Positions 174-36,628 of a stretch of 64,000 nt of DNA are shown here, piece after piece. The notes below the pieces were generated by a model. That model did no database searches and was not told the origin of the DNA. It saw only the letters and a program-made list of their open reading frames with translations. How positions within the stretch are numbered: the first letter of the stretch is position 1; each line of letters starts with the position of its first letter. This DNA is from Octopus vulgaris. Taxonomy: Eukaryota. Both the position numbers and the translations under genes were made by a program. The stretch covers positions 118,792,001 through 118,856,000 of the forward strand of contig OX597821.1 of NCBI GenBank assembly GCA_951406725.2. Reading direction: 5' to 3'.

Positions 174-373
174 TCATGGAAATTCACTGTCTAGATAATT
201 TACTGCGTCAGTACAATCAAATAACTTAAGAGCATTTCTGAGTGTTTCGTGTTTCTTTCGATCACATCTCTTGAACCATCTGTTGAGCATCTCGAATCTC
301 TGTTCATTAGTATCCTTTGGACAGTCACTGATGATAGTTTCCAGCTCAGTTTGTTTAATTCCTAATTCCCTTC
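174..373 (-). CDS. Terminal exon, rest of the death domain ([33 protein letters not shown]...[23 protein letters not shown])
   Basis: Acceptor ttttgcag. Death-domain pattern GR.LG.....I..D.P....EQ..EML..W......L..AL......D....L, stop TGA at 174-176. Confidence 0.88.
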
Positions 374-6534: not shown

Positions 6535-8776
6535 TGCTTATCTCAGTAGCAATCGAAACTCTTCTACTTGGATAAGAACATTGGATATATTATAAGTTTC
6601 AGTATCAGTGAAACAAAGACATGGAAATTGCTTTTGGAACACTTTTCATCTTTACTCCACCAGATTAAGTCAGACGTCTGACCGAACAAAAACAGCAACA
6701 ACAACAAAAACAACAACAACAACATCAGTAACCTTAGTAAAAACGTAAAGAAAGGAGAATCATTGACATTAACTCTCCTGTTTATACATAAACAACAACA
6801 TATTTTAGATCCCTATTTTAAAAGAGAATATTAAATCGTTTGTGTCTTCTAATTAATCCAATTTACCAACGATGCAAACCTTGATTTTATGACGTTTCTT
6901 CAATAGAATTACTTTACAGCTAAACTTTCAATTGGAAATTAAAAGAATGGAAACTGTTTTCAATCATTCTAACAAACAAAAGCTCAAATGAATGCAAGGT
7001 TTCTAAAAATCATTTAAATATTTTATACTTACCGTCTTGCTGGTTTTTACTCCCTAACTTTGTTGACTCTCTTTGAATATCATTCTCTTCCAGTGTTAGA
7101 GACTCTGTAAATAAGATATTTCCAAATTTTACACATCAAACTTTAATTTCTCTTTCTCTTTTATTAATGGTCTATATTTTGTCATTGTTATTCACATCAT
7201 CAATTGTCAACCGGTGGCCACAATGGTTTTGGACAGAATTTTTATACTTTCCATAGTGACCCCATCTAATGACACAATGTTAAGGTCCACACCAGAATGG
7301 TCTAAACTTCATTTCCCGATTAAGATATCCTCCGTAATCAAATAATCTAGTAATTATCACATTTAATTATCACTTGATGTCACTGTTCTCTTCTTCGTTT
7401 TGTCTTTCTTCTCTTATATCTGTGCCAAATCAATGACATTGTCCTCACGTCTCTAGACTTCACTAACCAACATTCTTCTTGCTGCTTAATTCCAATGTCA
7501 ACCAAGTTGGTTCTGCAAAGATATTACCACAAACACATGACACACTACTTCAAGTAGGATAAACACACACCTGATCTCTTTGTTGAAGGTTGTTGGTTGT
7601 AATCTTTAATTTTAACTGACCACATCACACGTCAACAGAATGTTCTCTGACTCAAGAAATATCTGAAGACATTACAATGCTAGTCAGCTTCTCTGATAAT
7701 TCTACCCTTTTGGAGCAGAAGACGATGACAAGTGTCTTAAAACCCCCGGTACACATGCACAAAACCTAATCAACTACATATATCGGTTGATCCTCGAGTT
7801 ATTGCACTGAAACTATTTGAAATGGTTCAGAAGGAATGAGACTCAAAGCATTATGAGCAAGATATGATATAGAACAAGCTGCATGCACCAGATCTTGTAT
7901 TTGTCCAGTGTTTTGACTTAACTATTGATTTAACCCATTCTCAGTTCGTGCCATGGTCCATAGCATATTCCTAAGCTTCTTATAGGTTTGTCTTTAACTT
8001 TTGGAATCGTTTCTCCTGCTACTCTTAACTTCACTTGCTTCTCATGTCCTCTGAAAAATGATTGTATTAATTAATTGCCTTAATCCTCCTCCTTGAGCAA
8101 GTGATTGATCCATACAGTCTACCCACAACTATTTGCCTATCGTCTTCGTCTCATGTTAGACTTGTAATACCATCCACCATTGCCATCTTAGGTGATTCCA
8201 ATTGAGACATTTCTTCTGGGAAATCTGCTAATCTAAGTAACATCTCCATAACAGACCCAAGCCAGATGACTGACATTTGGCAACCTACAGCAATTCCAAT
8301 TTCAAGACGATGCCAGTCTGTTGTGAAACATTCTGATGTCTGCCACAACTTGAAATTGTAACAAAAGCCCCTCATTAGATCGTCAACGTTCTCCAGTGTA
8401 TAAAAGAAGTCCACCGCTTCCATCAACAATTTCTTTGGTAGAGGCCCATGAGTGTTTGCCAGATCAAGGCATACGACATTGAAATCTTCTTGAGGACATG
8501 ACAAAGGTTTTACTGGTTGGGCCACAGGAAAATGCTCCCAGAAGCATTCTAGAAGTGGTTGTTGTAAGAAGGGCAAGCCACCAGTGAAAAGCTGGAAGTT
8601 TTTAAGTGAGAGATAATCTTCAACCAACGAATAAGAGCTGACCAGGACAGTGACCACCCATCTAAGCATGATAGTATGGAAAACATGCTTAATGATGAGT
8701 ACAATATCATTGATTGTATTGAATCTTGTAGCCAAAGTTTGTCTTGAAGAAAGAGAGAGAGAAAGAGAGAGAGAGG

Positions 8777-8822: not shown

Positions 8823-11800
8823 CTTTGCTCATCTCAGTAGCAATCGAAACTCTTCTACTTTGATAAGAACAATGGATGTATTAAAAGATTTAGTATCAGT
8901 GAAAGAAAGCCAGGGAAATTGCTTTTGGAAACACTTTTCATCTTTAGTCCACCAGATTAAGTCAGACGTCTGACCGAACAAAAACAGCAACAACAACAAA
9001 AACAACAACAACAACATCTGTAACCTTAGTAAAAATGTAAAGAAAGGAGAATCATTGACATTAAATCTCCTGTTTATACATAAACAACAACATATTTTAG
9101 ATCCCTATTTTAAAAGAGAATATTAAATCCTTTGTGTCTTCTAATTAATCCATTTTACCAACCATGCAAACCTGGATTTTATGAAGTTTCTTCAGTAGAA
9201 TTACTTTACAGCTAAACTTTCAATTGGAAATTAAAAGAATGGAAACTGTTCTCAATCATTCTAACAAACAAAAGCTCGAATGAAGGCAAATTTTCTAAAA
9301 ATCAATTAGGTATTTTATACTTACCTTCTTGCTGGTATTTACTCCCTAACTTTGTTGACCCTCTTTGAATATCATTCTCTTCCAGTGTTACAGACTCTGT
9401 AAATAAGATATTTCCAAATTGTACATATCAAACTTTAATTTCTCTTTCTCTTTTATTAATGGTCTATATTTTGTCATTGTTATTCACATCATCAATGGTC
9501 AACCGGTGGCCACTATGGTTTTGGACAGCATTTTTATACTTTCCATAGTGACCCCATCTAATGACCCAATGTTAAGTTCCACACCAGAAAGGTCTAAACT
9601 TCATTTCCCGATTAAGATATCCTCCGTAATCTAGTAATTATCACATTTAATTATCACTTGATGTCACTGTTCTCTTCTTCGTTTTGTCTTTCTTTTCTTA
9701 TATCTGTGCCAAATCAATGGCCTTGTCCTCACGTCTCTAGACTTCACTAACCAGCATTCTTCTTGCTGCTTAATTCCAATGTCAACCAAGTTGGTTCTGC
9801 AAAGATCTTACCACAAACACATGACACACTACTTCAAGGAGGATAAACACACACCTGATCTCTTTGTTGAAGGTTGTTGGTTGTAATCTTTAATTTTAAC
9901 TGACCACATCACACATCACAAGAATGTTCTCTGACTCAAGATATATCTGAAGACATTACAATGCTAGTCAGCTTCTCTGATATTTCTACCTAGGTAGCGC
10001 AGAAGACTATGACAGGTGTCTTAAAATCCCCAGTACACATGCACAAAACCTCATCAACTACATATATCTGTTCACCCTCGCATTAATGCACTGAAACTCC
10101 TTGAAATGGTTCAGAAGGAATGAGACTCAACCATGCTGCAAGCACCAGATCTTGTATTTGTGCAGTGCTTTTGACTTAACTATTGCTTTTAACCCATTCT
10201 CAGTTCGTGCCATGGTCCATAGCATATTCCTAAACTTCTTATAGGTTTGTCTTTAACTTTTGGAATCGTTTCTCCTGCTACATTGAACTCCACTTCTTCT
10301 CATGTCCTTTGACAAATGAATGTATTAATCAATTGCCTTAAACCTCCTCCTTGAGCAAGTGATTGATAAATACAGTCTATCCACAGCTATTTGCCTATCG
10401 TCTTCGTCTCATGTTAGACTTGTAATACCATCCACCATTGCCATCTTAGGTGATTCCAATTGAGACATTTCTTCTGGGAAATCTGCTATTCTAAGTAACA
10501 TCTCCATAACAGACCCAAGCCAGATGACTGATATTTGGCAACCTACAGCAATTCCAATTTCAAGACGATGCCAGTCTGTTGTGAAACATTCTGATGTCTG
10601 CCACAACTTGAACTTGTTACAAAAGCCCATCATTAGATCGTCAACGTTCTCCAGCGTATAAAAGAAGTCCACTGCTTCCATCAACAATTTCTTTTGTAGA
10701 GGCCCATGAGTGTTTGCCAGATCAAGTCATACAACATTGAAATATTCTTGAGGATATAACAAAGGTTTTGCTGTTTGGGCCACAGTAAAATGCTCCTAGG
10801 ACCATTAAAGAAGTGGTTGGTGTTAGGAAGGGCAAGCCACCAGTGAAAAGCTGGAATGTTTTAAGTGAGAGATATTCTTCAACCAACCAATAAGAGCTGA
10901 CCAGGACAGTGACCACCCATCTAAAACATGAGAGTATGGAAAACATGATTAATGATGAGTACAATGTCATTGATTGTATTGAATCTTGTAGCCAAAATCT
11001 GTCTTGAAGAAAGAGAGAGAGAGAGAGAGACTTTGCTCATCTCAGTAGCAATCGAAACTCTTGTACTTGGATGTATTAAAAGATTTAGTATCAGTGAAAG
11101 ACAGACATGGAAATAGCTTTTGGAACACTGTTCATCTTAGGTCCACCATATTATGTCAGTTATCTGACCGAAGAAAAACAGCAGCAACAACAACAAAAAC
11201 AACAACAACAACATTTGTAACCTTAGTAAAAATATAAAGAAAGAAAAGTCACTGACATTAACTCATCTGTTTATACATAAACAACAACATATTTTAGATC
11301 CCTATTTTAAAAGAGAATATTAAATCCTTTGGGTCTTCTAATTAATCCATTTTACCAACCATGCAAACAAGATGAGGATATAGACCAAGCTGCAAGCACC
11401 AGATCTTGTATTTAACTATTACTTTTAACCCATTCTCAGTTCGTGCCATGGTCCATAACATATTCCTAAACTTCTTATAGGTTTGTCTTTAACTTTTGGA
11501 ATCGTTTCTCCTGCTACATTGAACTCCACTTGCTTCTTATTTCCTTTGACAAATCAACGTATTAATTAATTGCCTTAATCCTCCTCCTTGAGCAAGTGAT
11601 TGATCCATACAGTCTACCCACAACTATTTGCCTATCGTCTTCGTCTCATGTTAGACTTGTAATACCATCCACCATTGCCATCTTAGGTGATTCCAATTGA
11701 GACATTTCTTCTGGGAAATCTGCTATTCTAAGTAACATCTCCATAACAGACCCAAGCCAGATGACTGATATTTGGCAAGCAACAGCAATTTCAAGACGAT

Positions 11801-12282: not shown

Positions 12283-15200
12283 TTTGCTCATCTCAGTAGC
12301 AAACCAAACTCTTGTACTTGGATAAGAACAATGGATGTATTAAAAGATTTAGTATCGACGAAAGAAAGACATGGAAATTGCTTTTGGAACACTTTTCATC
12401 TGAAGTCTGTGAGAATATGACATCTGGCTGAACAATAACAAAAATAAACTCTTAGAAAATTTAAAACAAACGAAAACCTTGTGAATACTCGTTCGTTTAC
12501 CCTTAAACAGCAACATATTTTATTTCCCGATTCCAAAAGACAATATTAACTCTATTTTGTCTAAACTCATTTCTCCATATTACCAAACTCAGAAGATATG
12601 TGATGAGATTTCAGTAATATTTTTAAGATTATTAATTTACATAAGAATGATCATAAATATGGAATGCAAATGTTATTCAAACCATGTAGCAAGTGTTGAT
12701 TATATATGGTTACAAACAAGGAGTTGTGTGTTCGAATCACATCAGGAATTCCTATTTTATTCTTCTTTGTATATTTTATACGTGAACATAAATACTTTGT
12801 TTATATGTAAACATATGTTCACAGTTCAATAAAATTAATTTAACGATCAATATTTTAAATGTTCTTTTAGTTATCACAACAATATATGTCCTAACCTGAG
12901 ACATTCCGGGTACGTACCCTAACAAGCGATGACATCTCAGATCAAACAGTGGACTAATATTATTGTTTAGCATTTTCATAACATGATAAATCATGAAGAA
13001 TTTCTGGAGGATAATTTTGCAAAATATGTTGAAACTGTCGATGCCATCTTTCACCAAATAAACATTCACAGCAACACAAAACAATTCATTAAGCAAAACA
13101 ATTAATTAAGCAACCAAAGCCTCTAATGTTTTTCTTTAACCGCTCAGTTGAGATTTTCTCATTGAATCTCCTATTTTACAAAAATCATTCTGATGTTCTC
13201 GTTACTAACACTGTCTTTATCAGATACTGATAAATACTGATAAATCATTAATCCCCTCTAATCACTCGCAATTGACTGTAAAAACATGATATTTACTGAG
13301 GGAATCTGGCAGTTTTATTAATATTTCTGTTAGTCGCCGTTTAACTTGCTCTATCACTCATTAGTCTTATCTTGCAAACAGTATCCTCTTGAAGTGAATC
13401 AAACCTTGTATTTGGACGAAGACGAAGTTTGGTGGATGAGGTGATTGATAAAGTATCACAAAGAAAAGACACTGTTATCATAAATCTGCTACATTTATGA
13501 CAGGTGTGACTCTATATAGTAACATGAAGTATATTATTCAACAGCATAAAGTCAATGAGACAAACAGACAGATCATCAAATAGTATTCTTACCGAATCCA
13601 CGTTTGTCAACTATAACTTGTTGACACTTGGGACAATTTTTAGGCTCATTTTCTGAACAGCAATCTTTGCATGTAACAGTGTGCTCACATGGTTGAAACG
13701 TCACTGTAGCTTCACTAGATTTACACAGCAGACATCTGTTGAACAAAACATAGAGACATATCACTGATAACATTCATTTATAACAAATATTGCATTGAGT
13801 ACATGTTTAGAGTACAGAATATTATGAGACACTGCTAGGACCAGTAAAAGTACATAAAAATATCTTCGTTAAAAAATTACGTAAATGCAAATGTTTTTGT
13901 ATATGAATTCTACGCTCACACGTGTATGTGTGTGTGTGTGTGTGTGAGGCATTCACATACATATTGTTAAATATATGTCTTGACTCTGGAACATCACAAA
14001 AAATTGCTTTACACACAACGAGCTACATATATTCCAGAAACATACTTCAATTCTTGTAGAGGGACAATTTCTTCTGAACAAAACCTAATCTGTTTAACAA
14101 GTTCTCTAAACGTAGACAATTCCTTTTGAATTGTATGGATGGACAGATAGAATACAATTGCCCTAGCTTCTTGTATTTGTGAACAATGTGTTACAAACCA
14201 GGCCACAGTTCAATAATAAAACAATGCCCCAAGCAACATGTCTGATATGCACATACCAAACCTGAGGATAGTTTTGAAGACTGATGAGTTGAATGCAATG
14301 AATGACAGCTTTCTATCTGCCTTCAATGCACAACTAATCTCTTGATGATCCCAGTCTAAGAAAAAGGTAAAAAATTGTTCTATGATGGATGGGATATAGA
14401 AAACAGCCCAACTACCAAACTGGTCCTTTCAGTGCCTGACCTGTGTGTCTTTTCCAACCATGGCTGTCAAACAAAAACAACCCATTCACAGGGAAATTGC
14501 GGATATCTGACGTAACATATATACAAACAAAAACACCTTACAGAATTGCACAAATGCTCTGCATCCAAACCCGCCCCTAGTTAAAGCTGAATCCAGGTTT
14601 ATAGAGAAGGCCATGTTATCTGCCATACATGATGTAATAATGTTTTTGGTGCATCTGAAGAAATCATTGATTTATAAACATTTTCTCTACAACTTGTCCA
14701 CATCAAATGTGTTCCTCCAAAAACATGTTCTCTGCTTCATTAGATTGAATCATAACCAAAATTAATTAGATTAACCTTCTACTGAGGCATGTGCATACTG
14801 TCTAGCTTCTAATGAGGCAGAGTGTGACTATTGAATATTTTGTTGAATCTATTTGTACGGGGGAAGTGCTTATTTACTAAGCTAAGAAACATCTTACTCG
14901 GGTTTTAACACTTAAAGAGAAATTGCAGAGTGTGGTATAACAATCAACACAACCAACCAATCATGTGAATGTAATCAAAATAGAGTTCTTCGACTGTATT
15001 TTCTATTTCTTGTTCTTCTTACAGTTGTTGTGTGGTCTTTGGTCAAAACACAGAATAACGTATTGGGAGGATTAAAACTAAACAAAACATATGAACATAA
15101 TTGCGTACAAAATAAAAAAAATTCTCTGCTTTGTCTTGTCATTGTTAGAGAATACTTACAGTGGTGGTGGGAAAAGCGTTTTAATTCTTTCCTTTAAATT

Positions 15201-15848
15201 TGTATCCTTTATAAGATCCAGCGGCATCATATTCCGTTTGTTTCTGTGGTAAAAGTTGGCTCCATTGTCGGCCAGATAACAAGCCACTGCTAGGCTTGAA
15301 AGCTTGCCTCCTTTGCTAAGCTGGAGCTTCTTGTAGTACTTCAAATGATGGAATATAAAAAAGACAAGTACAATATTACACAAATATAAACAAAATCATA
15401 ACATCAAGTCAAATACAAGAAATATAATGGAAATTATATATGTTAAAAATAACAGAGAACACACAGACTTATCCAAATATATCAACAATGTTTCCATAAT
15501 TAATAAAGAAACATCTTTGGATGATGAAGGTGAAGTAAAAGAAGTAAGAATTGGTGTCACGGTTGAGGAAACACACCAACACATTCTAGTTGATAAACTG
15601 TTGAAACTGTTAGTCTGACAGACAATTCCAGTAATGGAGGGAGAAGGGCATTTGACTGCCAGAATAGCTTCTTCGTATCAAAGTGGACATTTCCACAACA
15701 CAAAGATGACCATCAAATGTCTGAAATACAGTCACAAATCTGTAGAGACCGTTACTCATGTGGGAATCAGTGAGTTGCTTCAAGTGCGCAAAATTTGACT
15801 GTAAATACTGTTAGATCTACTGATGGTTAGATGTTGATGTATTTGTAT

Positions 15849-16983: not shown

Positions 16984-18060
16984 TGTATGTATGTATGTAT
17001 GTATGTACGTATGTATGTATATTGCTTTATTGTATCCATTGTCTAGTGTTCTAACATTCAATATTGTTATGGCACGTCCATAAGAAGCCAGAGGATACAT
17101 GTTGTGTACAAGAAGTAAGACAGGGAGCTGTTTTTTCAGAATCCCTCATAGAATGGAATGGATGTATTTATCATGGCACTTGCATTCTAAAGGTTGTCAT
17201 CATGTCTCTCTGTTTCTCTTTCTATCTCTTATAAATAAATCCACACGTATATATTTACAAATAATTCTAAAACTTACCTTATCCAAGACTGTTAAGGATT
17301 CATCCTCAGAATGGAACTCCTCTTTCCTCACCGCAAGGTGAAGACAATTGTTTCCGATATCATCGACCACATTTACGTCTGCTCCTTTAGAAATGAATTC
17401 CTGCATTATTCTGAAGTTGCCGCAAGAGACAGCTTGAAGAAATGGTGTTATACCATCCCAGTTTGTTATGTTCAATTTCACCGAATCCTTTGTGGAAGTA
17501 AAAATAGAGAATGAAAATTTACATGAAAACCAGGGTGGCTATCAATGTGTCATTACTGCCTTCTACTGGGTACTTGATCAAACCGATCACGTACATTTCA
17601 TGTTTGTCAGTAAAGTTAGCCTTACATAAGGTCCCTCTATAACTTGCTATGAGTGTGTTTAAGAGACATGATAAATCTATTTAGATGTCATAAACAGATT
17701 GGTTCAGCCTAATCTATGTTTATCCCTCGCTATAGTAAGTTTTAAGGGAGTTAAACTGCACTGAGCACAAGATTAATGGATTAAGCTTGGGAAAGAAGAA
17801 CTATACGACTTTTTCTCTACATTTGATGTTAATATATTAATAAGGGGCTCAGAATAGTTATATGTATATATATAGTTATATATATAGTTATATATATATA
17901 TATATATATATATATCATCATCATCATCAAAATATAGGAACAGCCATAATAGGCTGTTCAACCTACTAGAAATAGCAGCCAAGGCTTAAACCGCAAACAA
18001 GTATTAATTCCCAAAACCAGGAGAAAATTTTAAAAAAACATTTACCCTGATATATATATA

Positions 18061-22057: not shown

Positions 22058-25000
22058 TCTGTACAGTGCCAATACCTAGAGTAGAGTTTGGTGCAGTCTT
22101 CTGACTAACCAGCTCCTATCAAAACGTCCAACCCATGCCAGCATGGAAAATGGACGTTGAATGATGATGATGTTGATGGTAGTGGTGGTGGTGGTTGTGG
22201 TGGTGATGGCGAATGGCAGACATAAAATGTGATATATTTGGGTTAATTTCATAATAATCTTGTACACATTTCGTATAATCTAGTCATTAAAAATGGTATT
22301 GTCTGTGGTGGTGGTCAGCTGAACTGTCACCACACCATTACCATTACCATTATTATCATGTTCCTCCACATACCCTAGACCTGTCATTTAAAGGTTAGTG
22401 GGGTACAGCTGATTAAATCTACCCCCAGCATTTCACTGGTACTCTGATAATGTCAATATTGAACAGATCAATAAAATACAAGAGAGTGTATATAATATGT
22501 ATATGTCAACTAACCTGGGATAGAATCAATGCCACGACATCATAGTTTTGCCTAAAAATTATAGAAAAAAGAAAGAAACATAGAAAATATGAAAATCATA
22601 GAGGTTGAGATAATTAATAATTATTAGGTCATTAATTAATGAAAATAGATGTAATGAGCTACCTAAAACCTGTTTACATCAATAATTATATAGACGCACA
22701 TAAATATAATCGATATATACACTCTAACCAGTTGATTATTCATATATACACATCTGAATAAACACCACAATGTTTTCTATGGTACAACGAACAGCAAGTT
22801 GACCTCAGCAGGATTTGAACTCAGAATGCAAAGTGTTGTAAATACATACCAACAGTAATAAGAAACAGGAAGAGGAAAGAATCATTGAATATTACTGTTT
22901 GATATTAAATGACCCTCTAGATATCACTGGTATAGATTATATTGACCCCAGAGTGACAATAGATACTCTGGCATTATTTGAACTTGGAGCATAAAAAACA
23001 AAAGTAAATCCTGTAAGGGGGTGGTTCTGTCATTTAACCTAGGGTCAGAGGAAAAAGGGACATTATAAGAGGAGGAGGGAGAGAGAGAGAGTATGAGAGA
23101 GAGAGAGAAAGAGAGAGTAATTGGGGGTTTTACGTGGAATCAAACAAAGAAGACAAAGGATTTGAATCTGTAATGTTGTGGTATGGGGGATGAGGTGGAA
23201 TAATGGATTTAGTCAGGTGACAAGAACAAGAATAACAATAATTATGGGGACGATTAATTAATGCTGTAGATTACAGTGTCATTACACTATGAGAGAGAGT
23301 AGAAGGTTGACCCATGGTGGGAATAGGATATGATTGAGTCAATAAAACAAAACATTATTGAAAGGTAAGAAAGAGATTTGGATATTCCAGATCCAATGAG
23401 GACTTACCTGACAACTGCCAGATGTAGCGGAGTGTCACCAGATTTATTTATCATACGGACGTCAATGTCAGATTTCTTCAACAGATGTTTAACAACCTCT
23501 GTGTGACCATCAGCACTGGCCAGATGTAATGGCGTTTCACGATCATTATTCGCCGAATTTACGTTAATGCTAGACTGCTTCAGTAGATGTTCAACAACCT
23601 GTAGGTGTCCCTTCATAGAGGCGAGATGTAGTGGTGTGTTCCGATCATTATCCTCAGCATTTACATCAACATCAGACTGCTTCAGTAGATGTTCAACAGT
23701 CGCTAGGTGTCCACGAGCGGAAGCCAGAGATAGAGGTGTGTCACCGTCCTTATTCTTTACGCTGACGACCATTCCAGATCGCTGCAGTAGAAGTTTAAAA
23801 GTCTCTGGCTGTCCATTTATACATGCCCGATGTAAAGCTGTGTTGCCGTCTTTATTTTCCATACGCACGTCAATGTCGGACTTATTCAACAAATGTTTAA
23901 CAGTTTCTGTGTGACCATCAGCACTGGCCAGATGTAATGGCGTTTCACCATCATTATTCGCGGCATTTACGTTAATGCTAGACTGCTTCAGTAGATGTTC
24001 AACAACTTCTAGGTGTCCCTTCATAGAGGCGAGATGTAGTGGTGTGTTCCGATCATTATCCTCAGCATTTACATCAACATCAGACTGCTTCAGTAGATGT
24101 TCAACAGTCGCTAGGTGTCCACGAGCGGAAGCCAGAGATAGAGGTGTGTCACCGTCCTTATTCCTTACGCTGACGACCATTCCAGATCGCTGCAGTAGAA
24201 GTTTAAAAGTCTCTGGCTGTCCATTTATACATGCCCGATGTAATGCTGTGTTGCCGTATTTATTTACCATACGGACGTCAATGTCAGACTTCTTCAACAG
24301 ATGTGTAACAACCTCTGTGTGTCCATTAGCACTGGCCAGATGTAATGGCGTTTCAAGATTATTATTCGCCGAATTTACGTTAATGCTAGACTGCTTCAGT
24401 AGATGTTCAACAACCTGTAGGTGTCCCTTCATAGAGGCGCCATGTAGTGGTGTGTCCCGATCATTATCCACAGCATTTACATCAACATCAGACTGCTTCA
24501 GTAGATGTTCAACAGTCGCTAGGTGCCCCTTCATAGAGGCGAGATGTAGTGGTGTGTTCCGATCATTATCCTCAGCATTTACATCAACATCAGACTGATT
24601 CAGTAGATGTTCAACAACCTCTAGGTGTCCACGATCGCAAGCCAGAGACAGAGGTGTGTTACCGACCTTATTCTTTACGCTCATGACCATTCCAGATTGC
24701 TGCAGTAGAAGTTTAAAAGTCTCTGGCTGTCCATTTATACATGCCCGGTGTAATGCTGTGTTGCCGTATTTATTTACCATACGGACGTCAATGTCAGACT
24801 TCTTCAACAGATGTTTAACAACCTCTGTGTGTCCATCAGCACTGGCCAGATGTAATGGCGTTTCACGATCATTATTCGCCGCATTTACGTTAATGCTAGA
24901 CTGCTTCAGTAGATGTTCAACAACCTCTAGGTGTCCACGAGCGCAAGCCAGAGATAGAGGTGTGTCACCGTCCTTATTCTTTACGCTGACAACCATTCCA

Positions 25001-28000
25001 GATCGCTGCAGTAGAAGTTTAAAAGTCTCTGGCTGTCCATTTATACATGCCTGATGTAAAGCTGTGTTGCCGTATTTATTTACCATACGGACGTCAATGT
25101 CAGACTTCTTCAACAGATGTTTAACGATTTCTGTGTGACCATCAGCACTGGCCAGATGTAATGGCGTTTCACCATCATTATTCGCCGCATTTACGTTAAT
25201 GCTAGACTGCTTCAGTAGATGTTCAACAACCTGTAGGTGTCCCTTCATAGAGGCGAGATGTAGTGGTGTGTTCCGATCATTATCCTCAGCATTTACATCA
25301 ACATCAGACTGCTTCAGTAGATGTTCAACAGTCGCTAGGTGTCCACGAGCGGAAGCCAGAGATAGAGGTGTGTCACCGTCCTTATTCCTTACGCTGACGA
25401 CCATTCCAGATCGCTGCAGTAGAAGTTTAAAAGTCTCTGGCTGTCCATTTATACATGCCCGATGTAATGCTGTGTTGCCGTATTTATTTACCATACGGAC
25501 GTCAATGTCAGACTTCTTCAACAGATGTTTAACAACCTCTGTGTGTCCATCAGCACTGGCCAGTTGTAATGGCGTTTCACGATTATTATTCGCCGCATTT
25601 ACGTTAATGCTAGACTGCTTCAGTAGATGTTCAACAGTCGCTAGATGTCCCTTCATAGAGGCGAGATGTAGTGGTGTGTCCCGATCATTATCCACAGCAT
25701 TTACATCAACATCAGACTGCTTCAGTAGATGTTCAACAGTCGCTAGGTGCCCCTTCATAGAGGCGAAGTGTAGTGGTGTGTTCCGATCATTATCCTCAGC
25801 ATTTACATCAACATCAGACTGCTTCAGTAGATGTTCAACAACCTCTAGGTGTCCACGAGCGGAAGCCAGAGATAGAGGTGTGTCACCGTGGTTATTCTTT
25901 ACGCTTACGAACATTCCAGATCGCTGCAGTAGAAGTTTAAATGTCTCTGGCTCTCCATTTATACATGCCCGATGTAATGCTGTGTTGCCGTATTTATTTA
26001 CCATACGGACGTCAATGTCAGACTTCTTCAACAGATATTTAACGATTTCTGTGTGACCACCAACACTAGCCAGATGTAATGGCGTTTCACGATCATTATT
26101 TGGCGCATTTACGTTAATGCTAGACTGCTTCAGTAGATGTTCAACAACTTGTAGGTGTCCCTTCATAGAGGCGAGATGTAGTGGTGTGTTCCGATCATTA
26201 TCCTCAGCATTTACATCAATATCAGACTGCTTCAGTAGATGTTCAACAGTCGCTAGGTGTCCACGAGCGGAAGCCAGAGATAGAGGTGTGTTACCGTCCT
26301 TATTCTTTACGCTGACGACCATTCCAGATCGCTGCAGTAGAAGTTTAAAAGTCTCTGGCTGTCCATTTATACATGCCCGGTGTAATGCTGTGTTGCCGTA
26401 TTTAGTTACCATACGGACGTCAATGTCAGACTTCTTCAACAGATATTTAACGATTTCTGTGTGACCACCAGCACTAGCCAGATGTAATGGTGTTTCACGA
26501 TTATTATTTGGCGCATTTACGTTAATGCTAGACTTCTTCAGTAGATGTCCAACAACCTCTGTGTGTCCACGAGCACAGGCCAGGTGGAGTGGTGTATCAC
26601 CATCGTTATTTTGATGATTTACCTGAAAAATCAATAAAAAACACTAAAAATAGTGGCTAGAAGGGGACGGGTAGAACCCTTAACGCATATTCAGAAACAG
26701 AATGTAAGGAATAAGGTGGAATGATGATGGCCGGCCTTGAGTAAGTAAATGAACTTTGTATTGAGTTTATATTGTACTTACACACACACACACACATACG
26801 CACACACACACACACACACACATACATACACACACACACATTCTCTTATTTTCAATTTTGTAGCAAGCAATTATGTCTAGATTATGGGAAAGAAAATGAA
26901 GAGAGTGTGTTCTGGGGATTGATCTAAAACTCATCAAATATTTTTAAAATTTTATTCTATCAATATAATTATCATCTACACCCTCAAAAATGAAGAATTT
27001 TCCTTAAAGAATATGAATCATTGGAAAGTTGTGAGGAAACAAAATCTTGGGGCATTAAACTATAAATAGATTAACATGCTGTTTATTTTCGTAATATAGT
27101 GTAAGTTGTCTTTAAAATTATGAAAGTACATTTCAATAGAAACTCGAAGTAACGACAGTGACATCTTGTAATGTCCTGTAAATGGCGTATGTGACTTACA
27201 AACGTATCCAATACATAAACAGGCAGAAATTTAGTGTAACATAAAAGTCGTACGTATAATTTATATAGGATGAAAAGGGTCACATTAAGGAGAAAACATG
27301 ACAGTCATGGATGACCGAAATGAGATTTGTGAATAGTTTTTCACAATCTCCAAATTTGTTTCGCTCCACACGGCCATGAAGACACGATGTAAATAAAACA
27401 TTATTAATCCCGTTCTGTTACATAATTTTCTTTTTGCCGAACATCGATCGCCCTTCTTTAATTTGTGTCCAGATGCTGTCAGTGTTTGGATACAGAAATC
27501 TTAGACAATGGTTGACAACTTCATGAGTAGACAACTTGCCGGGACCCACATAAAAAAGCCTATCCATTTGTTATGTGAAGGAATGAAGGGTGACATCCAA
27601 AGCGAGGAGGGACGAGGGATGAAATTCTAATGTTTCACACTGATCAATTCCGGTTTCTATAGCAACATATTTTAATTCTTTGACGGACAATTTGTTTTAT
27701 GTAGGATGTCATCGCTACCTAATATCATGGAGAGTCCTAGAAAATTCAGACCCCTACATACACAGGGGCAAGTGTTGTAGACTGTGCATAGCCAAACGGG
27801 CGAGGATATTAAAGGACTCCGTCGACCTGGGGACACCCTTAACTCCAGAATAGAAGACTTCTCACCCAGTTGGCACTTCAGGAGATTCCTGCTGGCACCG
27901 TGGGATCCATAAGAAAACAGAGTCGATTACGAATAACAACCAAAGGAAGACAATTCCTGTTGCTGACGTAGGGTAACGATGCCCTTTTCTTCTCCATTTT

Positions 28001-29529: not shown

Positions 29530-32500
29530 TGTATCCATACATATGGCCATAATAAGTCTAAGACTGATGATGACAGTTCTAGTCCTTCATTAATTCATTT
29601 TTGACAAAACTGTATAAAATTATTTTACTTTTTGCAGTTTATGTAGAATTGTTTTCCCTTTCGAATGATATAGGCGTTATATATCTTTCTACTATTTGAA
29701 TAATTTTAATGTGCAATAAATTCAAATGATTAAAAATTGTCGACAAAAAGAATTCAAGACCTTTTGTGTAATAATCAAGCATTGTTACAGAAGCATCTTT
29801 CGTTATCAGAAAGCCATTGTAGTATCAACCCAGTCACTCGGTGAAAGATCGTGTTGCTTCAGCGGCAAAATGTGTCCTTCATGAATATTAGCAAGCAATC
29901 AGCATGCAGCAAAAGAGGCTTGCGTTCAAGCATGGAAGCTTTACCAAGTCAATAGCCAATACAAATTTCAGCAAAGAACGGGTGCTCCGAGACAAACAAC
30001 AGTACAGGCAGATCAGAGAATTCATAGGATCTCTGTAGGTAACCGAACGCTAACAACAGTGGACAGTTATCTGATGAGAGTGACATCAGCTATACACCAG
30101 AAACTGTCAGAAACCACCTGAAAGAATTTGGACTGTTCGGCCGGATCTCTCGAAAGAAGCTGGTAATTTCTGAGACAAACTGCTAGAAGTGGATCAACTT
30201 TGCTAAAAGCTATATTGAACAGACGGCCGAAGACTGGTCAAAAGTTCTTGATAGCGGCAAGCCTTGCTTCTGCATCTTTGGATCGGATGGAAAAACTTAT
30301 ATTAGATTCCGTCCAACTGAAGAATTCTGTGTGTCGAGAAAATGAGGCAAGCGGGTGGTTAGTTGGAGTGAGGTGGGGGTCAATTGTGTGGGTCGCATTC
30401 AGCAGCTTAGGTGTTGGTCCAGTTGTTGATGGCAGACTGAACAGTGTCAGCTGTCTGCAATTAGTAAATGAAAATGTGCTGCCATATTTAAATAGTCAAA
30501 TGCTACTGGGATCTATTTTGCAGCAGTACAATTGCCCCGTTCTTAATGCTAGGAAGGTTTTGCAATATTTTGAGCGCAATAATATGGAGGTTGTTGAGTG
30601 GCCTCCGCAGGGTCCAGATTTGTATCCAATAGAAAGTTTGCGGAATTATGATTCTAAAAGAGTTCATGCTAAAAAAAACCACCAAATGTGTCCCTGTTAT
30701 GTAATTTTATTGAAGGAATTATGGCAGAATATTCTCAGTGATTTTTATCCTCATTTGTCGAACTCCATGGCCCACCATTTTAAGGTCATAAAAGAGAATA
30801 ATGGTTATGGAACTAAATACTGATAATAAATTTTTGTTGATCATTTGTGCCGTAAATTTTCAGTTTAAATAAAATAATGTTGGTACAGTCTTAAACTTAT
30901 TTTGCTGACAATTTTTTATCATTTGAATTAATTGCTCATTAAATTTATTCAAAGTGTAGAAAGATATATAATGCCTCTATCATTAGGAAGAGATAAAAAT
31001 TCTATATACACTGTAAAAAAGTAAAATAATTTTATACAGTTTTAATTAAAATAAATTAATGAAGGAATAGAGCTGTCATCATATATATATATATCTAAAT
31101 GGCGGTGCCCCAGCATGGCCACAGCTTGTGAGCTGAAACTAAATGAAATAAATAAAAAAAAAATATATATATATATATAAAGGTAAATTTCTTAATTTGG
31201 TTAATAGAGATATATGATCCTAGCAGGTACCGTATTTGCTTTTCCTGGTTAATATTGGTGGCTAACCTCAGTGAGTGTAGATAAACTCCAGTGAGTTTAT
31301 TTAACTATTCCCTGATGACCTTCCCATCGGTAAATCCATATGTCTCTAGGTTGGTGGTAGAGAAGAAATACTGAACGAATAACGAAGGAGAAACGAGATT
31401 TATACATCCAGGTTTTATTTTGCAGTTAATCACATCTTTCCATGTTTGTACCTACATATGTTTCTGCTGCAAGTCAGTGCACACTGCAAGTTTTGCATCT
31501 TGCTGTGCAGGTTAGTGTTGATTACGGATGCTGCTTCTTTAGGGTACCATGAACTGCATTTCAGATTCCATCGGAACTAAATACAAGTCCAACCAAAATT
31601 GTTTATACATGTAGTGTTAGTATTCTAAAAAATAGCCTAAATTTTGAACTTTCCAACTCTACATACATAGACACATGCATATACACTCACTGACCTGTAA
31701 CATGTTGTTTGCTGAGCCATTTAACAGAAATTCAACTACATCTCTACAGTTCTTCTCCACAGCTGTATGGAGTGGTGTGTTGCCTTGTAAGTCCTGCTTG
31801 TTAATATTGATTCCCTTGGAAACCAGAAGGGCCACAGCATCACGCTTATTGCTGAAAGTAAGAAATATAAACATCACAGACATTGACATAAGAATTACAT
31901 TGAATCTACACGCATGTTCAGTACATAAAAATTAAACATACAGAAGTGTAAGTAATGTATAACACCACCCCAATATTTTCTGATTTATAAGGTACACCCG
32001 GAAGTCAACCTTTGCATTATATGGGTAGACTTCAGCATGTTCTGGAAGCAAAAGAACAGGAAGGGTGGCTAGGTTGATGGGGTGTAAGGAGAGATTGCAA
32101 GGGTGTACGGAGAAAGTAAGGGGAAGTTAGAAATGGAACAGGGGTGCGAATATGCAGAATGAGGAACAAGGGTTTATGGAGGAGATATCCAGTGGAAGTT
32201 GAGGGTGAGTATATAATGACTAGAGACTGAGAGTAGATGATGAGTAAAGATTGGAAAATGATAGTATAGAAATGAATGTTGTGGATGGTAGAGGATTGAT
32301 CAATGACTCATATGAGTTGGGGAAGGTCAGGGGGGTTAGGTGCTGATTGGCAGAATAGGAGGGTGAAGAGCAACAGGATAATAGAAATACTGTAGACAGG
32401 AGAAGGATGAGATAAAGGGAGATGATGTGTGTATGTGGTGGGTGTAGGCTACAAGAGTGTGAGTGGAGAGAAATACTGGGAGGAAGAGTGAGAGATATAT

Positions 32501-33944
32501 GTTAATAAGAAAAAGTCAACAAGAAGAGATTTAGTGGAAAGGAGAAAGGGAGTTAATTTCGTAGCATATAAGGGAGAAGGGTGATCAATGCAAAATGTGA
32601 GTGGAGAGGGACAATGTTAAAAATGAAAGATGGATGTTAAGTGAAGTGGTTCTGGCAGGTGAGAAAGATAACTGCTTTCACAGAAAAGATGATAAAATGT
32701 GTAGTTCTCTCCTCATTCAACTACAGCATTAGAATAATGTACTTAGATATATGATAGATAATGAGGGGCTGGAGAAGAAGTTTTGATGAGAAAATTAAAT
32801 AAACGGCCTAATTGTGTATATAAATATTGTATTTCTGAAATTCAGTTTTGCTGAGATGGTTTGGTTTCCTTGAGCATAACATGTTACCAATCAATCCATC
32901 TTCAACCCTAGCTTCATTCCGTTCCAGTCTTCGTATGTCCTCTGCCCGAGGTTCGTGTCTCACTACCATACACCATTGCCGTTTGAACACAAATATCATA
33001 CATTCTACCTTTTTCTCTAAGAGGGAAATTTCTTTCTAAATACACAGTTAGAAACTCTCTGAACTTTCTCCGTCCTATTCTTATTCCGTCAACTCTGACA
33101 ATTTTGTGTGACTGTTCTTTTCAATTTGATACAAGTCTTTATTCTTCAGTTGTCCATTCTTACTCTGTGTTGACTGTTTTTTTCTGACAGTTTATTTCTT
33201 TGAAATTTCTGTCTTCCGATGAAGTGGTAAAAAGTTGCCACAAAAACAATTGTAAAGAATGAAATTTGGAATAAATACTTCTCACTCTTATTACAAAATA
33301 TGGATTTGTATTCTATGGATATTGCAAGCAACGAACATAGATATTGGAATTGTCTTCATAGCTACATTTCTGGGATTGTAACAGACTTTACTGTGTGCAT
33401 GTATGTGTGTGTCTGTGTGTCCAAAGTATCTCCAAAGCAACATAATTTTGGAAAGATCTATTTTGACAACAGATCACCAAAATTGTTTTTTATGATTCAA
33501 AACTAAATCATGGAGAAAATAAGAAAACGATGTTGTTGGATATTACTACCATATTGTCATCGTGTCACACTGCCATTACTATGGCATATTTGGACATTTG
33601 ACCTGTTTGGAATTGGAAGAAATTTAGAAACACAACAAATCTGGAGATTTTAGTCAATTCTGAACTTACCACTCCACAGCATGATCAAGAGCTGTTTTGC
33701 CATCTCCACCCTTCATATCCAAATCAGCTCCAGCCTCGATTAAGAAATTTATAAGATCTGTTTTGCCCACTTGGCAAGCTGCCATCAGATATGTCACACC
33801 TTGTGAACTTATTTCGTTAATCTGAAGTGAAGAAAGCGAAGGCATGTAAAATATATTAAAGAGAGAAGAAGAGAGAGTACGGAAGAAGATGCTTGGGTGA
33901 GGATATAGGGATATGAAAGAGAAAGAAAGATGAAGAAGAAAGAT

Positions 33945-33995: not shown

Positions 33996-36628
33996 CATAC
34001 ATACACACACATATATATGTCATATTGGATGGTTTCCCTCAAACTCAGATTGGACTTAGAATTCCGGTCGTCCTAAAAGGGCCAGGAGAGTTCATATGTA
34101 CATATACACTCTACATCTCCAGTCTGGAATCTTCATTTTTCTTTTTACCAGAATATCAACTTACTGGAAACTTCCAGAGATGTGCAACTACACAAATACC
34201 CTCTCTCACTCATTTATCATATCTTAAATGTATTGCTTCTCTGAGCATCAACACACAAAAATCTTTCGTTTCTGGCAGCTAACTTGCTAGAATTCTACAG
34301 ATTTATCCACCATCTTTCCAACAACATTTCTGACCACCTCTGGAATTCAATACTTCTACCATTCCAGACATGCTTATAAAATCAAAAATAGCCAAGCTAC
34401 AATGATTTTCAGAAACTTTTGTTTCACATTAAAAATTGCCAAAGCTTGGAACAAACTATCTACGTTGGTTGTTAGTTGATCCCTTCAAAATAGCAGACTT
34501 CCTGAAATTCATTATCACTACTTCTGATGCTCCTATGCACCCGTTCCTCTTTCTATCCCTTTCAATGCTCCCTTTTCTGCCTATGGGTGTCTTACCCTAT
34601 GTACTATGTCATACACATTATGCTGCCATGGGTGTCTCTCTCTACATGACATTGTGTTGCTTTCTGACCTTACATGTGATGGGGAAAGATCCATAATTAG
34701 GGGAATCATACAAATCTACCAATTCATTTTAAAGGAAAAAGCGTTTCTTATTAAACGTAGGATGTCTGTCTTAGTTACACCCTCACTTTTGTCTGACTGA
34801 AGTGGTGGGGGAAAATCACTTCACAGATCCCCCAGTATATTACTGTTACATTTGATATCAAATAGGAAGCGAAAGAAAACACTGAAAAGATTTCAAGTGT
34901 GAGACGCTGACAAGAGACACGCTGCTAAATATACAGAGACCATCTGAACAAACCAACTGTAGAGATTAGACCATAAGATGGTGTGTAAAGTAATTGAATA
35001 GGTAAAGATCTATAACGGGTGAAAACCCTTAGGAATAATTGTGGTGAGTTGATGCATAAACTCAGGAAGACATTGAAAACCTCTTTAAGTTGGTCATTGA
35101 AGCTATTACAAAGGAAATATTTGTGACTTGATATCTGTGGGAAGTTATGAAAGACATCAGGGTCTGCTAAATATGTCCAAAGTGTGAAAAAGTAGACGCA
35201 AAAGAAAGAAAGAGTGACAGAGAGAATTATAATATTAAGAAAGCAGGGAGTAGTTTGAGGAATCTTAATAAGGCAGCAGTATCAGGGCTTGCATTAGTTT
35301 GTAGTCATACGGTATGTAAAAATGTGTGAGTGGTTCATACCCAACTGTATTACAGCTGTACAGATAAGCAACACTATCAACTTCACCTGGAGGAAAACAC
35401 CTACCCTCACTAACTGGCAGACATTCACCCACCGTTGAAATACATGTCTGATGGTCAACAAAAAACGTAAGGATTGTTTCTGCATTTCACCATCTGTCAG
35501 CTCTTTTCCCTCCCAAATTAGAGCCTAGATTTCTGGTCTCTTACCAAGAATTATCTCCATAAATTAAGCAGAATCCTTTTACCCACCACTCTCTAACTGT
35601 GGAGAGGCTCTATACCTGTAATTCTCAAAAATTTGCTATGGCCCCTTTTTCTTTTGCTAACAACTTTTCAAAAGCTTTTTCCCTTGCTATAATTCAGTGT
35701 CCCTCGTTTTAAATGTATAAAATACCAGGTGAAAGTATTTTCTTTCTGGGTCCCTGTCTTGACATGGGTGAATACTAACCACAGGCCCACCCCACAATAA
35801 ATGAATATTTGATACATCACCCCTTCACTTTAGTTACTGATTGAACCTTTACTCAGGTAAATATTATTTGTGTTTCATATATACGTACTCCCATTTGTTC
35901 CTTGGTCCCCAGTCCTCATAAAATTTTCCACAGCCCCCAACCAGGGGTAGTATTAATCTCTTTGGAAAAGGCCTGCTCTATATTCTTGTAGAGAGTATCT
36001 CATCTGCTGACTACCAACCTATTATTCGAATGTCCAATATTTCAAATATGAAGTAAAAAGTCATAAACAGCCATCATCTTCATCCTTTCGGTATCTTCCT
36101 CTATTCAATGAACTCCAGTATAGTTCTGTAAAGCCAGATCGAGCAGATGGTAGAGTCGATTCCTATGTGACACCCCAGTGTTTTCATATATTTGACAGAA
36201 AAGAGAAATGGTGTAACCCTTGACATCAGTAAAACTTTCAATTGTTTCTGGCGAGAGAACGTCATGACAAAGTCACCATCCATCTACTGGCTCCATCTGT
36301 TTCTCATCTCTTGGACTGAATATTTCCTGCCAGAATACTCCATTGCAGTGTGTGATGATGGGCTTCTCTCTCATTCACATTCCATCAACTCTGACATGCT
36401 TCAAGGTTTAGCTAAATATTTATGAAATCTAGTAATGATGATTAGAGATGAAAGAAAAGAAATACCTGTGTTTATTTAGGAACAATTAATATTGTGTATA
36501 AAATAGCAATCAACTTTGAGAAGACAATAAACAGAACAACTTACTTTTTGTGAATTCTTTTTAATATATTCTTGAATATTTTGAGTGTCACCAAGCAAAA
36601 GTTTACTTATATTCTCATCAAATTCCAT
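174..36628 (-). CDS. Spliced gene: Mind-bomb-derived ankyrin repeat / RING-HC / death-domain protein (13 coding exons, 1554 aa with all cassette exons)
   Basis: Manual splicing of exons 36628-36545, 33821-33670, 31851-31695, 26622-23408, 22551-22515, 17487-17278, 15338-15160, 13735-13593, 9396-9325, 7104-7033, 4852-4781, 3008-2937 and 373-174. All introns are GT-AG, phases match at every junction (0,2,0,2,0,0,2,1,1,1,1,1), total 4665 nt with no internal stop. The motif [26 protein letters not shown] followed by a RING resembles the MIB1/MIB2 ANK-RING junction. Confidence 0.85.
2937..3008 (-). CDS. First death-domain exon ([24 protein letters not shown])
   Basis: Acceptor ttttcag, donor gtgagc. 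Supplies the L..VA..LG..W..V helix 1-2 motif of a death domain and joins in frame to GRELG of the last exon. Confidence 0.85.
3260..3945 (-). mobile_element. Decayed non-LTR retrotransposon RT fragment (HERO / RLE-clade-like), array unit 1
   Basis: DLANTHG...[20 protein letters not shown]...VDDITILT resembles the RT motifs LDLANAYGS / GI..GC.IS / F.DD. Frameshifts and stops present. Confidence 0.7.
4781..4852 (-). CDS. 72-nt phase 1-1 cassette exon, derived copy ([24 protein letters not shown])
   Basis: Acceptor ttttcag, donor gtaagt, open frame. Confidence 0.65.
5100..6210 (-). mobile_element. Decayed HERO / RLE-like RT fragment, array unit 2
   Basis: ORF 5858..6145 [22 protein letters not shown]...VDDITILT. 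Confidence 0.7.
7033..7104 (-). CDS. 72-nt phase 1-1 cassette exon, derived copy ([24 protein letters not shown])
   Basis: Acceptor tttacag, donor gtaagt, open frame. Confidence 0.65.
7350..8490 (-). mobile_element. Decayed HERO / RLE-like RT fragment, array unit 3
   Basis: ORF 8151..8735 [15 protein letters not shown]...[12 protein letters not shown]. Confidence 0.7.
9325..9396 (-). CDS. 72-nt phase 1-1 cassette exon, derived copy ([24 protein letters not shown])
   Basis: Acceptor tttacag, donor gtaagt, open frame, paralogous to exon 2937-3008. Confidence 0.65.
9635..10750 (-). mobile_element. Decayed HERO / RLE-like RT fragment, array unit 4
   Basis: ORF 10409..10687 with the same RT motifs. 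Confidence 0.7.
11369..11980 (-). mobile_element. Decayed HERO / RLE-like RT fragment, array unit 5 (truncated unit)
   Basis: ORF 11646..11915 with the same RT motifs. Confidence 0.7.
13593..13735 (-). CDS. RING-HC (C3HC4) finger exon
   Basis: CLLC-x9[13 protein letters not shown]8-CPKC, MIB/IAP-type spacing. 143 nt, phase 2 to 1, acceptor cag, donor gtaag. Confidence 0.9.
15160..15338 (-). CDS. Last ankyrin / linker exon of Mind-bomb type (YYKKLQ...[13 protein letters not shown]...MMPLDLIKD...FPPP)
   Basis: 179 nt, phase 0 to 2, donor gtaagt. Resembles the MIB motif IACFLAANGADL..RNKKGQSPLDL. Confidence 0.85.
16041..16237. repeat. Inverted repeat, ~75-bp arms with ~46-bp spacer
   Basis: ttcaaacatataagggatggcc...ccaaaccactaat (16041-16115) is the near-perfect reverse complement of attagtggtttgg...ggccatcccttatatgtttgaa (16162-16236). 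Confidence 0.9.
16487..16940 (-). mobile_element. tRNA-derived SINE (octopus-type) with internal (CA)n(TA)n
   Basis: Minus-strand head agtggctgtgtggtaagtagc...gggtccagtccc with A/B-box-like motifs, and a (aagagta)n-like tail. Near-identical copies at 38551 and 57612. Confidence 0.85.
17278..17487 (-). CDS. Ankyrin exon ([20 protein letters not shown]...GNNCLHLAV...VLDK)
   Basis: 210 nt, phase 0 to 0, acceptor ...cacaaag, donor gtaagt, two ankyrin motifs. Confidence 0.85.
18900..19150 (-). mobile_element. RTE-type LINE C-terminal fragment
   Basis: [31 protein letters not shown] resembles the RTE RLRWFGHV motif. Confidence 0.6.
19678..21990 (-). mobile_element. Decayed RTE-clade LINE with (GAT)n 3' tail
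   Basis: ORF pieces [14 protein letters not shown]...NYRGIKLLD...[19 protein letters not shown]...VNVAKTKVL and [20 protein letters not shown]. (cat)n at the low-coordinate end. Confidence 0.85.
22515..22551 (-). CDS. 37-nt exon completing an ankyrin repeat ([13 protein letters not shown])
   Basis: Strong polypyrimidine tract ending in ttttag, donor gttagt. Provides the phase 2 to 0 bridge needed between the flanking exons and supplies ankyrin helix 2. Confidence 0.8.
23408..26622 (-). CDS. Giant single exon encoding 31 complete 34-aa ankyrin repeats plus the start of a 32nd
   Basis: ORF 23404..26634. Acceptor ttttcag before 26622, donor gtaagt after 23408. TPLHLA / TALHRA / TPLSLA motifs recur every 34 aa (102 nt). 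Confidence 0.95.
28215..29440. repeat. Large imperfect palindrome, ~600-bp arms with ~20-bp spacer centred near 28808
   Basis: ggtcacgtgtttcagtctt (28731) pairs with aagactgaaacacgtgacc (28862). ttatccgagc (28358) pairs with gctcggataa (29286). cattctctttt (28237) pairs with aaaagagaatg (29411). Confidence 0.85.
29540..31081 (+). mobile_element. Degenerate Tc1-like DNA transposon with ~200-bp IR/DR-type terminal inverted repeats
   Basis: tgatgacagttctagtccttcattaatt...caagac (29568-29760) mirrors gtcttaaac...aattaatgaaggaatagagctgtcatca (30888-31081). ORF 30200..30823 has [13 protein letters not shown] and the terminal GYGTKY. Frameshifted upstream. Confidence 0.9.
31695..31851 (-). CDS. Ankyrin exon ([31 protein letters not shown]...NNMLQ)
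   Basis: Acceptor tttcag, donor gtcagt, 157 nt, phase 2 to 0, GNTPLH motif. Confidence 0.88.
33670..33821 (-). CDS. Ankyrin exon ([19 protein letters not shown]...[10 protein letters not shown])
   Basis: Acceptor cag, donor gtaagt, 152 nt, phase 0 to 2, ankyrin consensus. Confidence 0.88.
35500..36420 (+). mobile_element. Highly decayed LINE (CR1/Jockey-like) RT fragment
   Basis: [13 protein letters not shown] resembles ALDISKAFDRVW. Heavily disrupted. Confidence 0.4.
36545..36628 (-). CDS. First coding exon ([28 protein letters not shown])
   Basis: Polypyrimidine acceptor (tttctttctttttctag) before 36645, ATG at 36628, donor gtaagt after 36545. Phase 0 joins in frame to INEISSQG of the next exon. 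Confidence 0.75.

Follow-up and report, generated by a model that had tools for sequence, protein, structure and literature searches.

MIB1 and MIB2, the Mind bomb E3 ligases, share the domain order MZM-REP-ANK-RINGs. In MIB1, the MZM/REP region is reported to bind the substrate and RING3 alone to be catalytic, via the motif P993-I994-C995-R996, in which transfer proceeds through P993, I994 and R996, and removal of the whole ANK domain is reported to lower Notch activity barely (bioRxiv 2024.03.01.582834). In MIB2, the second RING is described as the required one, and the human protein acts in TNF/RIPK1/cFLIP death signalling (PMC7815719). Among animal repeat proteins at large, several domains duplicate at once, and 30% of long repeats are reported to lie in one large exon (PMC1553488); concerted evolution of such repeats is described as rare, lineage-specific and enriched in immunity and stress terms (PMC5100051). 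Here, we describe an ankyrin array in a stretch of 64,000 nucleotides (nt) of the Octopus vulgaris genome (assembly GCA_951406725.2, contig OX597821.1, positions 118,792,001 to 118,856,000; hereafter the window, numbered from its first letter), which is represented by a single haplotype. On balance, this array is probably the expanded exon 4 of a Mind bomb-derived octopus gene cut down to the order ANK-RING-Death, whose product may serve as a multivalent binding adaptor for death-domain signalling.

The window is AT-rich, microsatellite-rich animal DNA, and its longest open reading frame (ORF), at 26643-23404 on the minus strand, encloses the array (Table 1). Exon 4 is entered in phase 0 and left in phase 2, and it contains 7 codons, 31 repeats of 34 amino acids (aa) and the start of a 32nd repeat. 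These tandem helix-turn-helix-hairpin repeats are predicted to form an ankyrin solenoid and match Pfam Ank with E=1e-248, and Tandem Repeats Finder reports periods of 102, 306 and 408. An original prediction, made from the sequence alone, had announced 31 repeats of exactly 34 aa in four types (A to D), and counts, spacing and type motifs agree with it; the order it gave, (AB)CD ABCD A(BA)BCD ABCD (AB)CD A(BA)BCD ABCD ABC, was found again, as were the lack of any frameshift (neither stop nor indel is present) and the diverged flanking ankyrin repeats split by introns, which lie on separate exons. Its statement that same-type repeats are nearly identical in DNA is right as to high identity, which averages 92-96% within types (the type consensuses being 61-73% mutually identical), but is overstated, since only four of the 79 same-type pairs are fully identical. 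Read from the tail of one repeat to the head of the next, 30/30 junctions follow A>B>C>D>A, whereas 200,000 shuffles gave a mean of 7.7 and a maximum of 20. The ratio of observed to expected CpG is 0.83 in the array (23408-26622) and 0.48 in the gene's other exons.

The host gene was modelled by mapping proteins of relatives onto the window, which yielded 13 predicted GT-AG exons from 36628 to 174 on the minus strand, joined in one ORF of 1,554 aa with no internal stop. The predicted protein opens with an N-cap and three ankyrin repeats; after these come the array, about four further repeats, a RING and a Death domain, the latter two identified by Pfam. A search with the coding exon next to the array returned, as the nearest named matches, RING- and Death-bearing 'MIB2-like' proteins of Octopus vulgaris and O. 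sinensis at 90-95% identity; a second paralog inside the window was considered and rejected. Exons 4 and 5 (22515-26622) are jointly of phase 0/0, so that in-frame skipping is possible, and the models of two relatives (P0238 and P0258) lack both.

The ANK block is homologous to that of Mind bomb proteins, exon 7 having the MIB1 structure 8v0e as its best match in the PDB, and it is related to the SH3_15-bearing proteins P0296 and P0328. Relatives begin at the same Met as the window gene. The REP regions of P0296 and P0328 found nothing better than E=0.76 in the window (a control RING reached E=2e-8), MZM itself not being among the queries and an exon beyond the window being conceivable, and four terminal-RING queries gave nothing better than E=0.25 in the window. 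The RING that is present aligns with the proximal one of the two RINGs in a REP-bearing relative, and reads P-K-C-Q at the motif that contacts the E2 enzyme, the Ile and Arg positions not being kept. Judged by these alignments, the predicted protein is a Mind bomb derivative without the substrate-binding N-terminus or the catalytic terminal RING; the retained RING by itself is probably no ubiquitin ligase, and the database label 'E3 ligase' appears doubtful for this protein and its family. Two other relatives, P0237 and P0252, are N-terminally truncated, keep both RINGs and have no Death domain in Pfam, and could represent steps on the way from Mind bomb to the ANK-RING-Death architecture.

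Relatives were drawn from 366 fetched proteins, 47 of which match the exon 6-7 region (44 of these came from the 150 matches listed in one search), while 3 more match the RING. Four only are named, all from Octopus, the remainder being assumed to be cephalopod by similarity alone, and none exceeds 772 aa. Left out of the repeat count were 19 of the 50 that start downstream of the array exon and three canonical-like proteins with REP or two RINGs and the ancestral ANK layout. Among the other 28, the segment homologous to exon 4 holds one repeat in 17 proteins, none in 2, two in 3 and three in 3, and a single protein each has five, at least five and seven. The single-repeat form of the segment measures 51 aa, and the window exon measures 51 + 30 x 34 aa. 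In a quick tree with a weak backbone, from which P0280 and P0287 were omitted for low coverage, the expanded members fall in separate clades, and the window gene groups with P0121, P0123 and P0124 at 99% support in the Shimodaira-Hasegawa-like approximate likelihood ratio test (SH-aLRT); by clade and by domain order it belongs to the octopus MIB2-like ANK-RING-Death group. As far as these alignments indicate, exon 4 is a family-wide accordion, of which 31 repeats are the extreme.

The nearest neighbour of every window repeat (31/31) lies inside the window gene, and the mean internal identity of the array is 57% across all types. It resembles the concerted arrays of high internal conservation (HIC) in that its repeats are more like one another than like the repeats of relatives, and in that its purity exceeds 50%. 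Other family arrays are older, with mean internal identities of 40-71% and no pair above 71%. Searches with the whole exon and with the ABCD unit returned only generic long ankyrin proteins, the best identities being 37% and 46% among the 120 matches listed for each, where ranking by total score may hide short close relatives.

Four repeats had been described as fusions, namely repeats 1 and 17 as A-head/B-tail and repeats 9 and 21 as B-head/A-tail. Diagnostic sites bear this out for three of them: repeat 17 has 16 A sites followed by 12 B sites, and repeats 9 and 21 have 15 B sites followed by 12 A sites. An A/B fusion was rejected for repeat 1, because only its tail is B-like and its head is as far from the A consensus (9/33 nt) as from that of C (9/33), in contrast to the 0-4 differences from A that genuine A heads show; repeat 1 is instead the unhomogenised edge of the array, where homogenisation stops. 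Two independent B/A events were likewise rejected, since repeats 9 and 21 share E31V plus one silent change, which points to one insertion that was later copied. Rather than two sets of reciprocal products, there are one deletion (repeat 17) and one insertion (repeat 9), copied to repeat 21 by block duplication, so that chimera-forming events number two, not four. The reciprocal products of one crossover would, moreover, end up on different chromatids. Crossing-over had also been placed in the shared VEHLLKQS core, but the face-value switch point in repeats 9 and 21 is at nt 33-43 (GHL codons), upstream of it. Over nt 34-72 (39 nt), A and B differ only at codons 15-16 and are perfectly identical for 25 nt; because the variants of codons 15-16 occur in both types, breakpoints can be placed only within nt 34-72.

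When the array is cut at the shared core, it resolves into four modules (B-tail/C-head, C/D, D/A and A/B), and the A/B module is present in 1, 2, 1, 0, 2, 1 and 1 copies in the seven complete units. Each module corresponds to a hairpin plus the next inner helix, which is the usual ankyrin binding face. The face positions, taken from DARPin design to be 2, 10, 11, 31, 33 and 34, coincide with variable columns of a DARPin alignment, and their residues are almost constant within each module type. Recombination alters the number and neighbours of faces and builds no hybrid faces, one 102-bp module being present at 0, 1 or 2 copies. The proposal that the array reshuffles its binding surface is therefore not upheld: hairpin/inner-helix modules are intact at all junctions, and surface change is not above neutral (p=0.43).

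Shared derived changes join repeats 8/20, 9/21, 10/22, 12/24, 15/27 and 16/28, and because of those in 9/21 and their neighbours, repeats 8-16 and 20-28 are traced to one 918-nt duplication. A Cys9 common to repeats 1 and 17 was rejected as a sign of a 16-repeat duplication because the codons differ; repeats 3/19 and 4/20 do share changes and may reflect such a link. The synonymous distance is 0.078 among same-type modules and 0.36-0.59 between types, and in a recombination check on 7 blocks with 16 informative sites, 39 of 120 site pairs were incompatible with one tree. These distances and incompatibilities support the earlier claim of a recent array shaped by unequal exchange, at least as to a relatively recent, intra-exonic array. 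That it is still recombining finds no such support in the one haplotype, in which no two blocks are identical and the longest exact match is only 295 nt. A tree of single repeats (34 columns) had no branch with support of at least 95%. Private substitutions average 1.4 per repeat, but repeat 27 (23848-23949) carries seven (corrected p ~0.02), every one of them within codons 16-34, and repeat 7 carries six; the tract in repeat 27 was possibly converted from another allele or paralog.

These patterns may be joined in the following model. The exon would have started with one 34-aa repeat, which underwent internal duplication and divergence into four types; the comparison with relatives shows these states, and the order of the steps is our proposal. 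The 408-bp four-repeat unit would then have been amplified about eightfold by out-of-register homologous exchange, a presumed process behind the observed pattern, and this amplification would have included one 918-bp block duplication plus short conversion tracts, which both unequal crossing-over and break repair fit. Mispairing by one repeat in the 39-nt stretch shared by A and B may have removed the 102-bp A-tail+B-head module (repeat 17) or added it (repeat 9, copied to repeat 21). The resulting protein is predicted to fold as one continuous solenoid, along which the four hairpin/helix faces recur: a model of repeats 8-16 (chimera 9 among them) built with alignment-based AlphaFold is continuous, with a predicted local distance difference test score (pLDDT) of 96.6 and a predicted template modelling score (pTM) of 0.90, and superposes on ankyrin-1 (8cs9) with a template modelling score (TM) of 0.93 and a root-mean-square deviation of 1.4 Å. 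Such a protein would most likely be a cytosolic multivalent binder or sensor, in which the array stands in for the substrate module that Mind bomb proteins have and this one lost, while the Death domain links binding to death or NF-kB-type signalling. The suggestion of an immune role draws on analogies with MIB2 in TNF death signalling, with HIC repeats in NLRs and with the immune enrichment of concerted repeats.

Several observations weigh against reading the array as a binding adaptor. Exon limits in relatives were inferred from protein alignment, and no orthologous array was found, the three closest models (P0121, P0123 and P0124) beginning downstream of exon 4. Incompatible site pairs in the recombination check lie further apart, but the result is marginal (p=0.044 in our own distance test, not the published pairwise homoplasy index (PHI) program), and the sites are non-independent, some falling in the same codon. 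The ratio of non-synonymous to synonymous polymorphism (pN/pS), with distinct alleles counted in repeats 2-31, is 0.64 overall and not significantly below 1 (p=0.13). No positive selection on the surface was detected (pN/pS 1.09; few changes, hence low power), and the absence of stops among ~71 changes is weak evidence of constraint, having a chance of 0.14. By analogy, the MIB1 deletion result implies that ANK length can be loosely constrained. A non-immune alternative is offered by Drosophila Mib2, which is reported to require its ankyrin repeats for a role in muscle (PMC5345843).

Mostly neutral runaway expansion, in which exchange amplified the repeats as soon as one exon contained two similar ones and selection only kept frame and fold, the extra length having no specific function, is a serious rival, and we regard it as a real possibility, if not a probable one. 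It accords with the neutral rate of change at surface positions, with the single repeat that suffices in most relatives, with the tolerance of MIB1 to ANK deletion, and with exons 4 and 5 being skippable in frame; in addition, the array gene contains a 2.25-kb tandem duplication, which marks the locus as duplication-prone. It does not readily explain why four distinct faces keep a strict order at every junction, why the framework off the face looks constrained (pN/pS 0.52), or why several clades independently expanded the same exon. Non-synonymous changes are enriched at the six concave-face positions (17/48, p=0.016), though not above neutrality. A hypervariable, still-recombining recognition domain like the repeats of fungal het-e/het-d NLRs, with many alleles and new specificities made by shuffling, would fit the high internal conservation, the mosaic blocks, the reciprocal-type chimeras, the Death domain within the same protein, the large variable family and the extra module of the 5-repeat blocks, which is changed at two face positions. 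Nevertheless, faces are almost constant within types, positive selection was not detected, chimera-forming events are only two, and the 13-exon model has no NACHT or NB-ARC and, between ANK, RING and Death, no space where one would fit, all of which makes this reading unlikely.

A mechanical role seems very improbable. The 30 added repeats amount to about one superhelical turn, and as a spacer or spring they would set the distance from the N-terminal repeats to the RING-Death part, as the 29 repeats of NOMPC do; a continuous solenoid is indeed predicted, and about 29 repeats are reported to be optimal in TRP-N springs, but the same report describes very low indel rates in TRP-N springs (PMC5100051), while the family exon varies between 0 and 31 repeats, and the gene model has no channel or membrane domain. 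We give hardly any credence to an assembly artefact, in which the assembler would have duplicated a shorter array or put its repeats in the wrong order. It would suit such an error that exon 4 is missing from the closest database models and that, of the 366 proteins, not one is more than 46% identical to the ABCD unit; however, the window is free of N and of frameshifts, and assembly duplication was rejected because no block is an exact copy of another and every block has substitutions of its own. Our preference stays with the expanded exon of a Mind bomb-derived adaptor. It is tempting to go further and see an undescribed octopus family of Mind bomb-derived ANK-RING-Death receptors, which shed the ancestral substrate module and catalytic RING and in which the accordion exon is a DARPin-like recognition domain that can be tuned, varies between individuals in its number of modules and feeds death-domain signalling, as an ATPase-free animal counterpart of the fungal HIC NLRs; this extension is speculative, and we would sooner expect it to fail than to hold.

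Table 1. Features of the array and its predicted host gene (positions in the window)
Feature	Positions	Strand	Remarks
Exon 1, N-cap	36545..36628	minus	ATG at 36628; relatives P0230 and P0238 match it at their N-terminus
Exon 2, diverged ankyrin repeats	33670..33821	minus	
Exon 3, diverged ankyrin repeat	31695..31851	minus	
Exon 4, ankyrin array	23408..26622	minus	3,215 nt; AG before, GT after
Repeat 1	26500..26601	minus	Diverged edge head + B-type tail; homogenised sequence begins inside
Repeats 8-16, 918-nt block	24970..25887	minus	Source copy; 32 differences from second copy in 918 nt
Repeat 9	25684..25785	minus	B-head/A-tail chimera; extra A-tail+B-head module
Repeat 17	24868..24969	minus	A-head/B-tail chimera; A-tail+B-head module lost
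Repeats 20-28, second copy of 9-repeat block	23746..24663	minus	Shared derived changes
Repeat 21	24460..24561	minus	Copy of repeat-9 chimera; 98% identical
Exon 5	22515..22551	minus	37 nt; completes repeat 32
Exon 6, ankyrin repeats	17278..17487	minus	89-95% identical to Octopus MIB2-like proteins
Exon 7, last ankyrin repeat	15160..15338	minus	Best PDB match human MIB1 ANK (8v0e, E=2.8e-7)
Exon 8, C3HC4 RING	13593..13735	minus	Homologous to proximal, not terminal, RING of two-RING Mind bomb-like protein
Derived copy of Death exon 1	9325..9396	minus	72 nt, phase 1/1, splice sites intact
Derived copy of Death exon 1	7033..7104	minus	72 nt
Derived copy of Death exon 1	4781..4852	minus	72 nt
Death domain exon 1, family-like copy	2937..3008	minus	
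Last exon, remaining Death domain + stop	174..373	minus	

Downstream of the RING, at window positions 2616-12586 within the array gene, a 2.25-kb unit is repeated in tandem about 4.5 times, with 82-91% identity between copies. Three of the copies contain a 72-nt version of the first Death exon that is free of stops, of phase 1/1 and flanked by intact splice sites. Relative to the original, these versions have changed at 22-24 of their 72 nt, against only 3-5 of 55 bases in the upstream intron, which hints at fast coding change. In relatives, too, the linkers that separate RING from Death are repeated; this is a second accordion, one that arose through duplication of exons. The RING exon of the window matches those of P0121 and P0124 at 98-100% identity, whereas in the last Death exon identity to P0121, P0123 and P0124 falls to 30-65%; this contrast suggests that clustered paralogs swap their Death exons or change fast there. 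Elsewhere in the window, decayed pieces of a LINE-like reverse transcriptase, with a weak match to Pfam RVT_1 (E=0.003), lie at ~19700-21970 on the minus strand, in the intron below the array, and a Tc1/mariner-like remnant with a weak Pfam DDE_3 match (E=0.024) lies at 30167-30823 on the plus strand, with inverted ends near 29567-29760 and 30888-31082; a second such remnant, at ~43160-43600 on the minus strand, was recognised by eye only. Upstream of the gene, three ORFs that overlap one another (296, 244 and 190 aa; 39229-41278, plus strand) have no convincing Pfam match and are probably a broken mobile element. A tandem repeat of 145 bp in three copies (95% matches) lies at 60920-61353.

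In the literature searched, which did not extend to supplementary tables and subscription papers, no description of the octopus ANK-RING-Death family was found, and none of the relevant terms occurs in the main text of either of two papers on cephalopod genomes (PMC9068888, PMC10700109). Concerted repeat expansion itself is already known, both as multi-domain duplication in one large exon and as concerted ankyrin arrays in fungi, and the octopus exon is of this known kind, in a variable family not found described. The case is unusually legible, because the same exon has 0-7 repeats in relatives and 31 here, and because the unit that moved is a hairpin-plus-inner-helix module with its faces intact. 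The case also indicates that shortened, Death-bearing derivatives of Mind bomb make up a sizeable family, which databases label 'E3 ligase MIB2-like' although its members lack Mind bomb's ligase parts. Since the closest gene models begin right after the array exon, annotations may miss such arrays. If the family is immune, the array would be a concrete candidate for variable intracellular recognition in cephalopods that can be tested by PCR.

Compared with MIB1 and MIB2, the window gene has an ANK block that likewise ends in a MIB-type last repeat (8v0e being its best match) followed by a C3HC4 RING, and the 34-aa spacing occurs also in the ANK region of the REP-bearing relative P0296; by contrast, it has neither REP nor terminal RING in the window and a Death domain instead, and its protein has ~38 ankyrin repeats as against 9-10. 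The Octopus MIB2-like models P0121, P0123, P0124 and P0127 are 82-100% identical to it in exons 6-8, and three of the four share the order ANK-RING-Death, but P0127 has one repeat at the array segment. With ankyrin-1/2/3, NOMPC and DARPins it shares the continuous ankyrin solenoid, and ankyrins also have a Death domain, which need not be of common origin; unlike theirs, its repeats are 34 aa long, recently homogenised and encoded in one exon, with no ZU5 or channel domain. In the fungal HIC NLRs (Podospora het-e/het-d; ANK, WD40, TPR), near-identical superstructure repeats are similarly reported to gain, lose and exchange units beside a cell-death domain (PMC13449251), whereas the window gene lacks an ATPase domain, has a four-type higher-order unit and is known from one haplotype. 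Finally, with the single-exon and concerted repeat expansions of other animals, as far as these have been described in the sources cited above, it shares multi-domain duplication within one large exon; what distinguishes the octopus array is that its insertion, its deletion and its block duplication are each legible in the bases, with single-repeat paralogs at hand for comparison.

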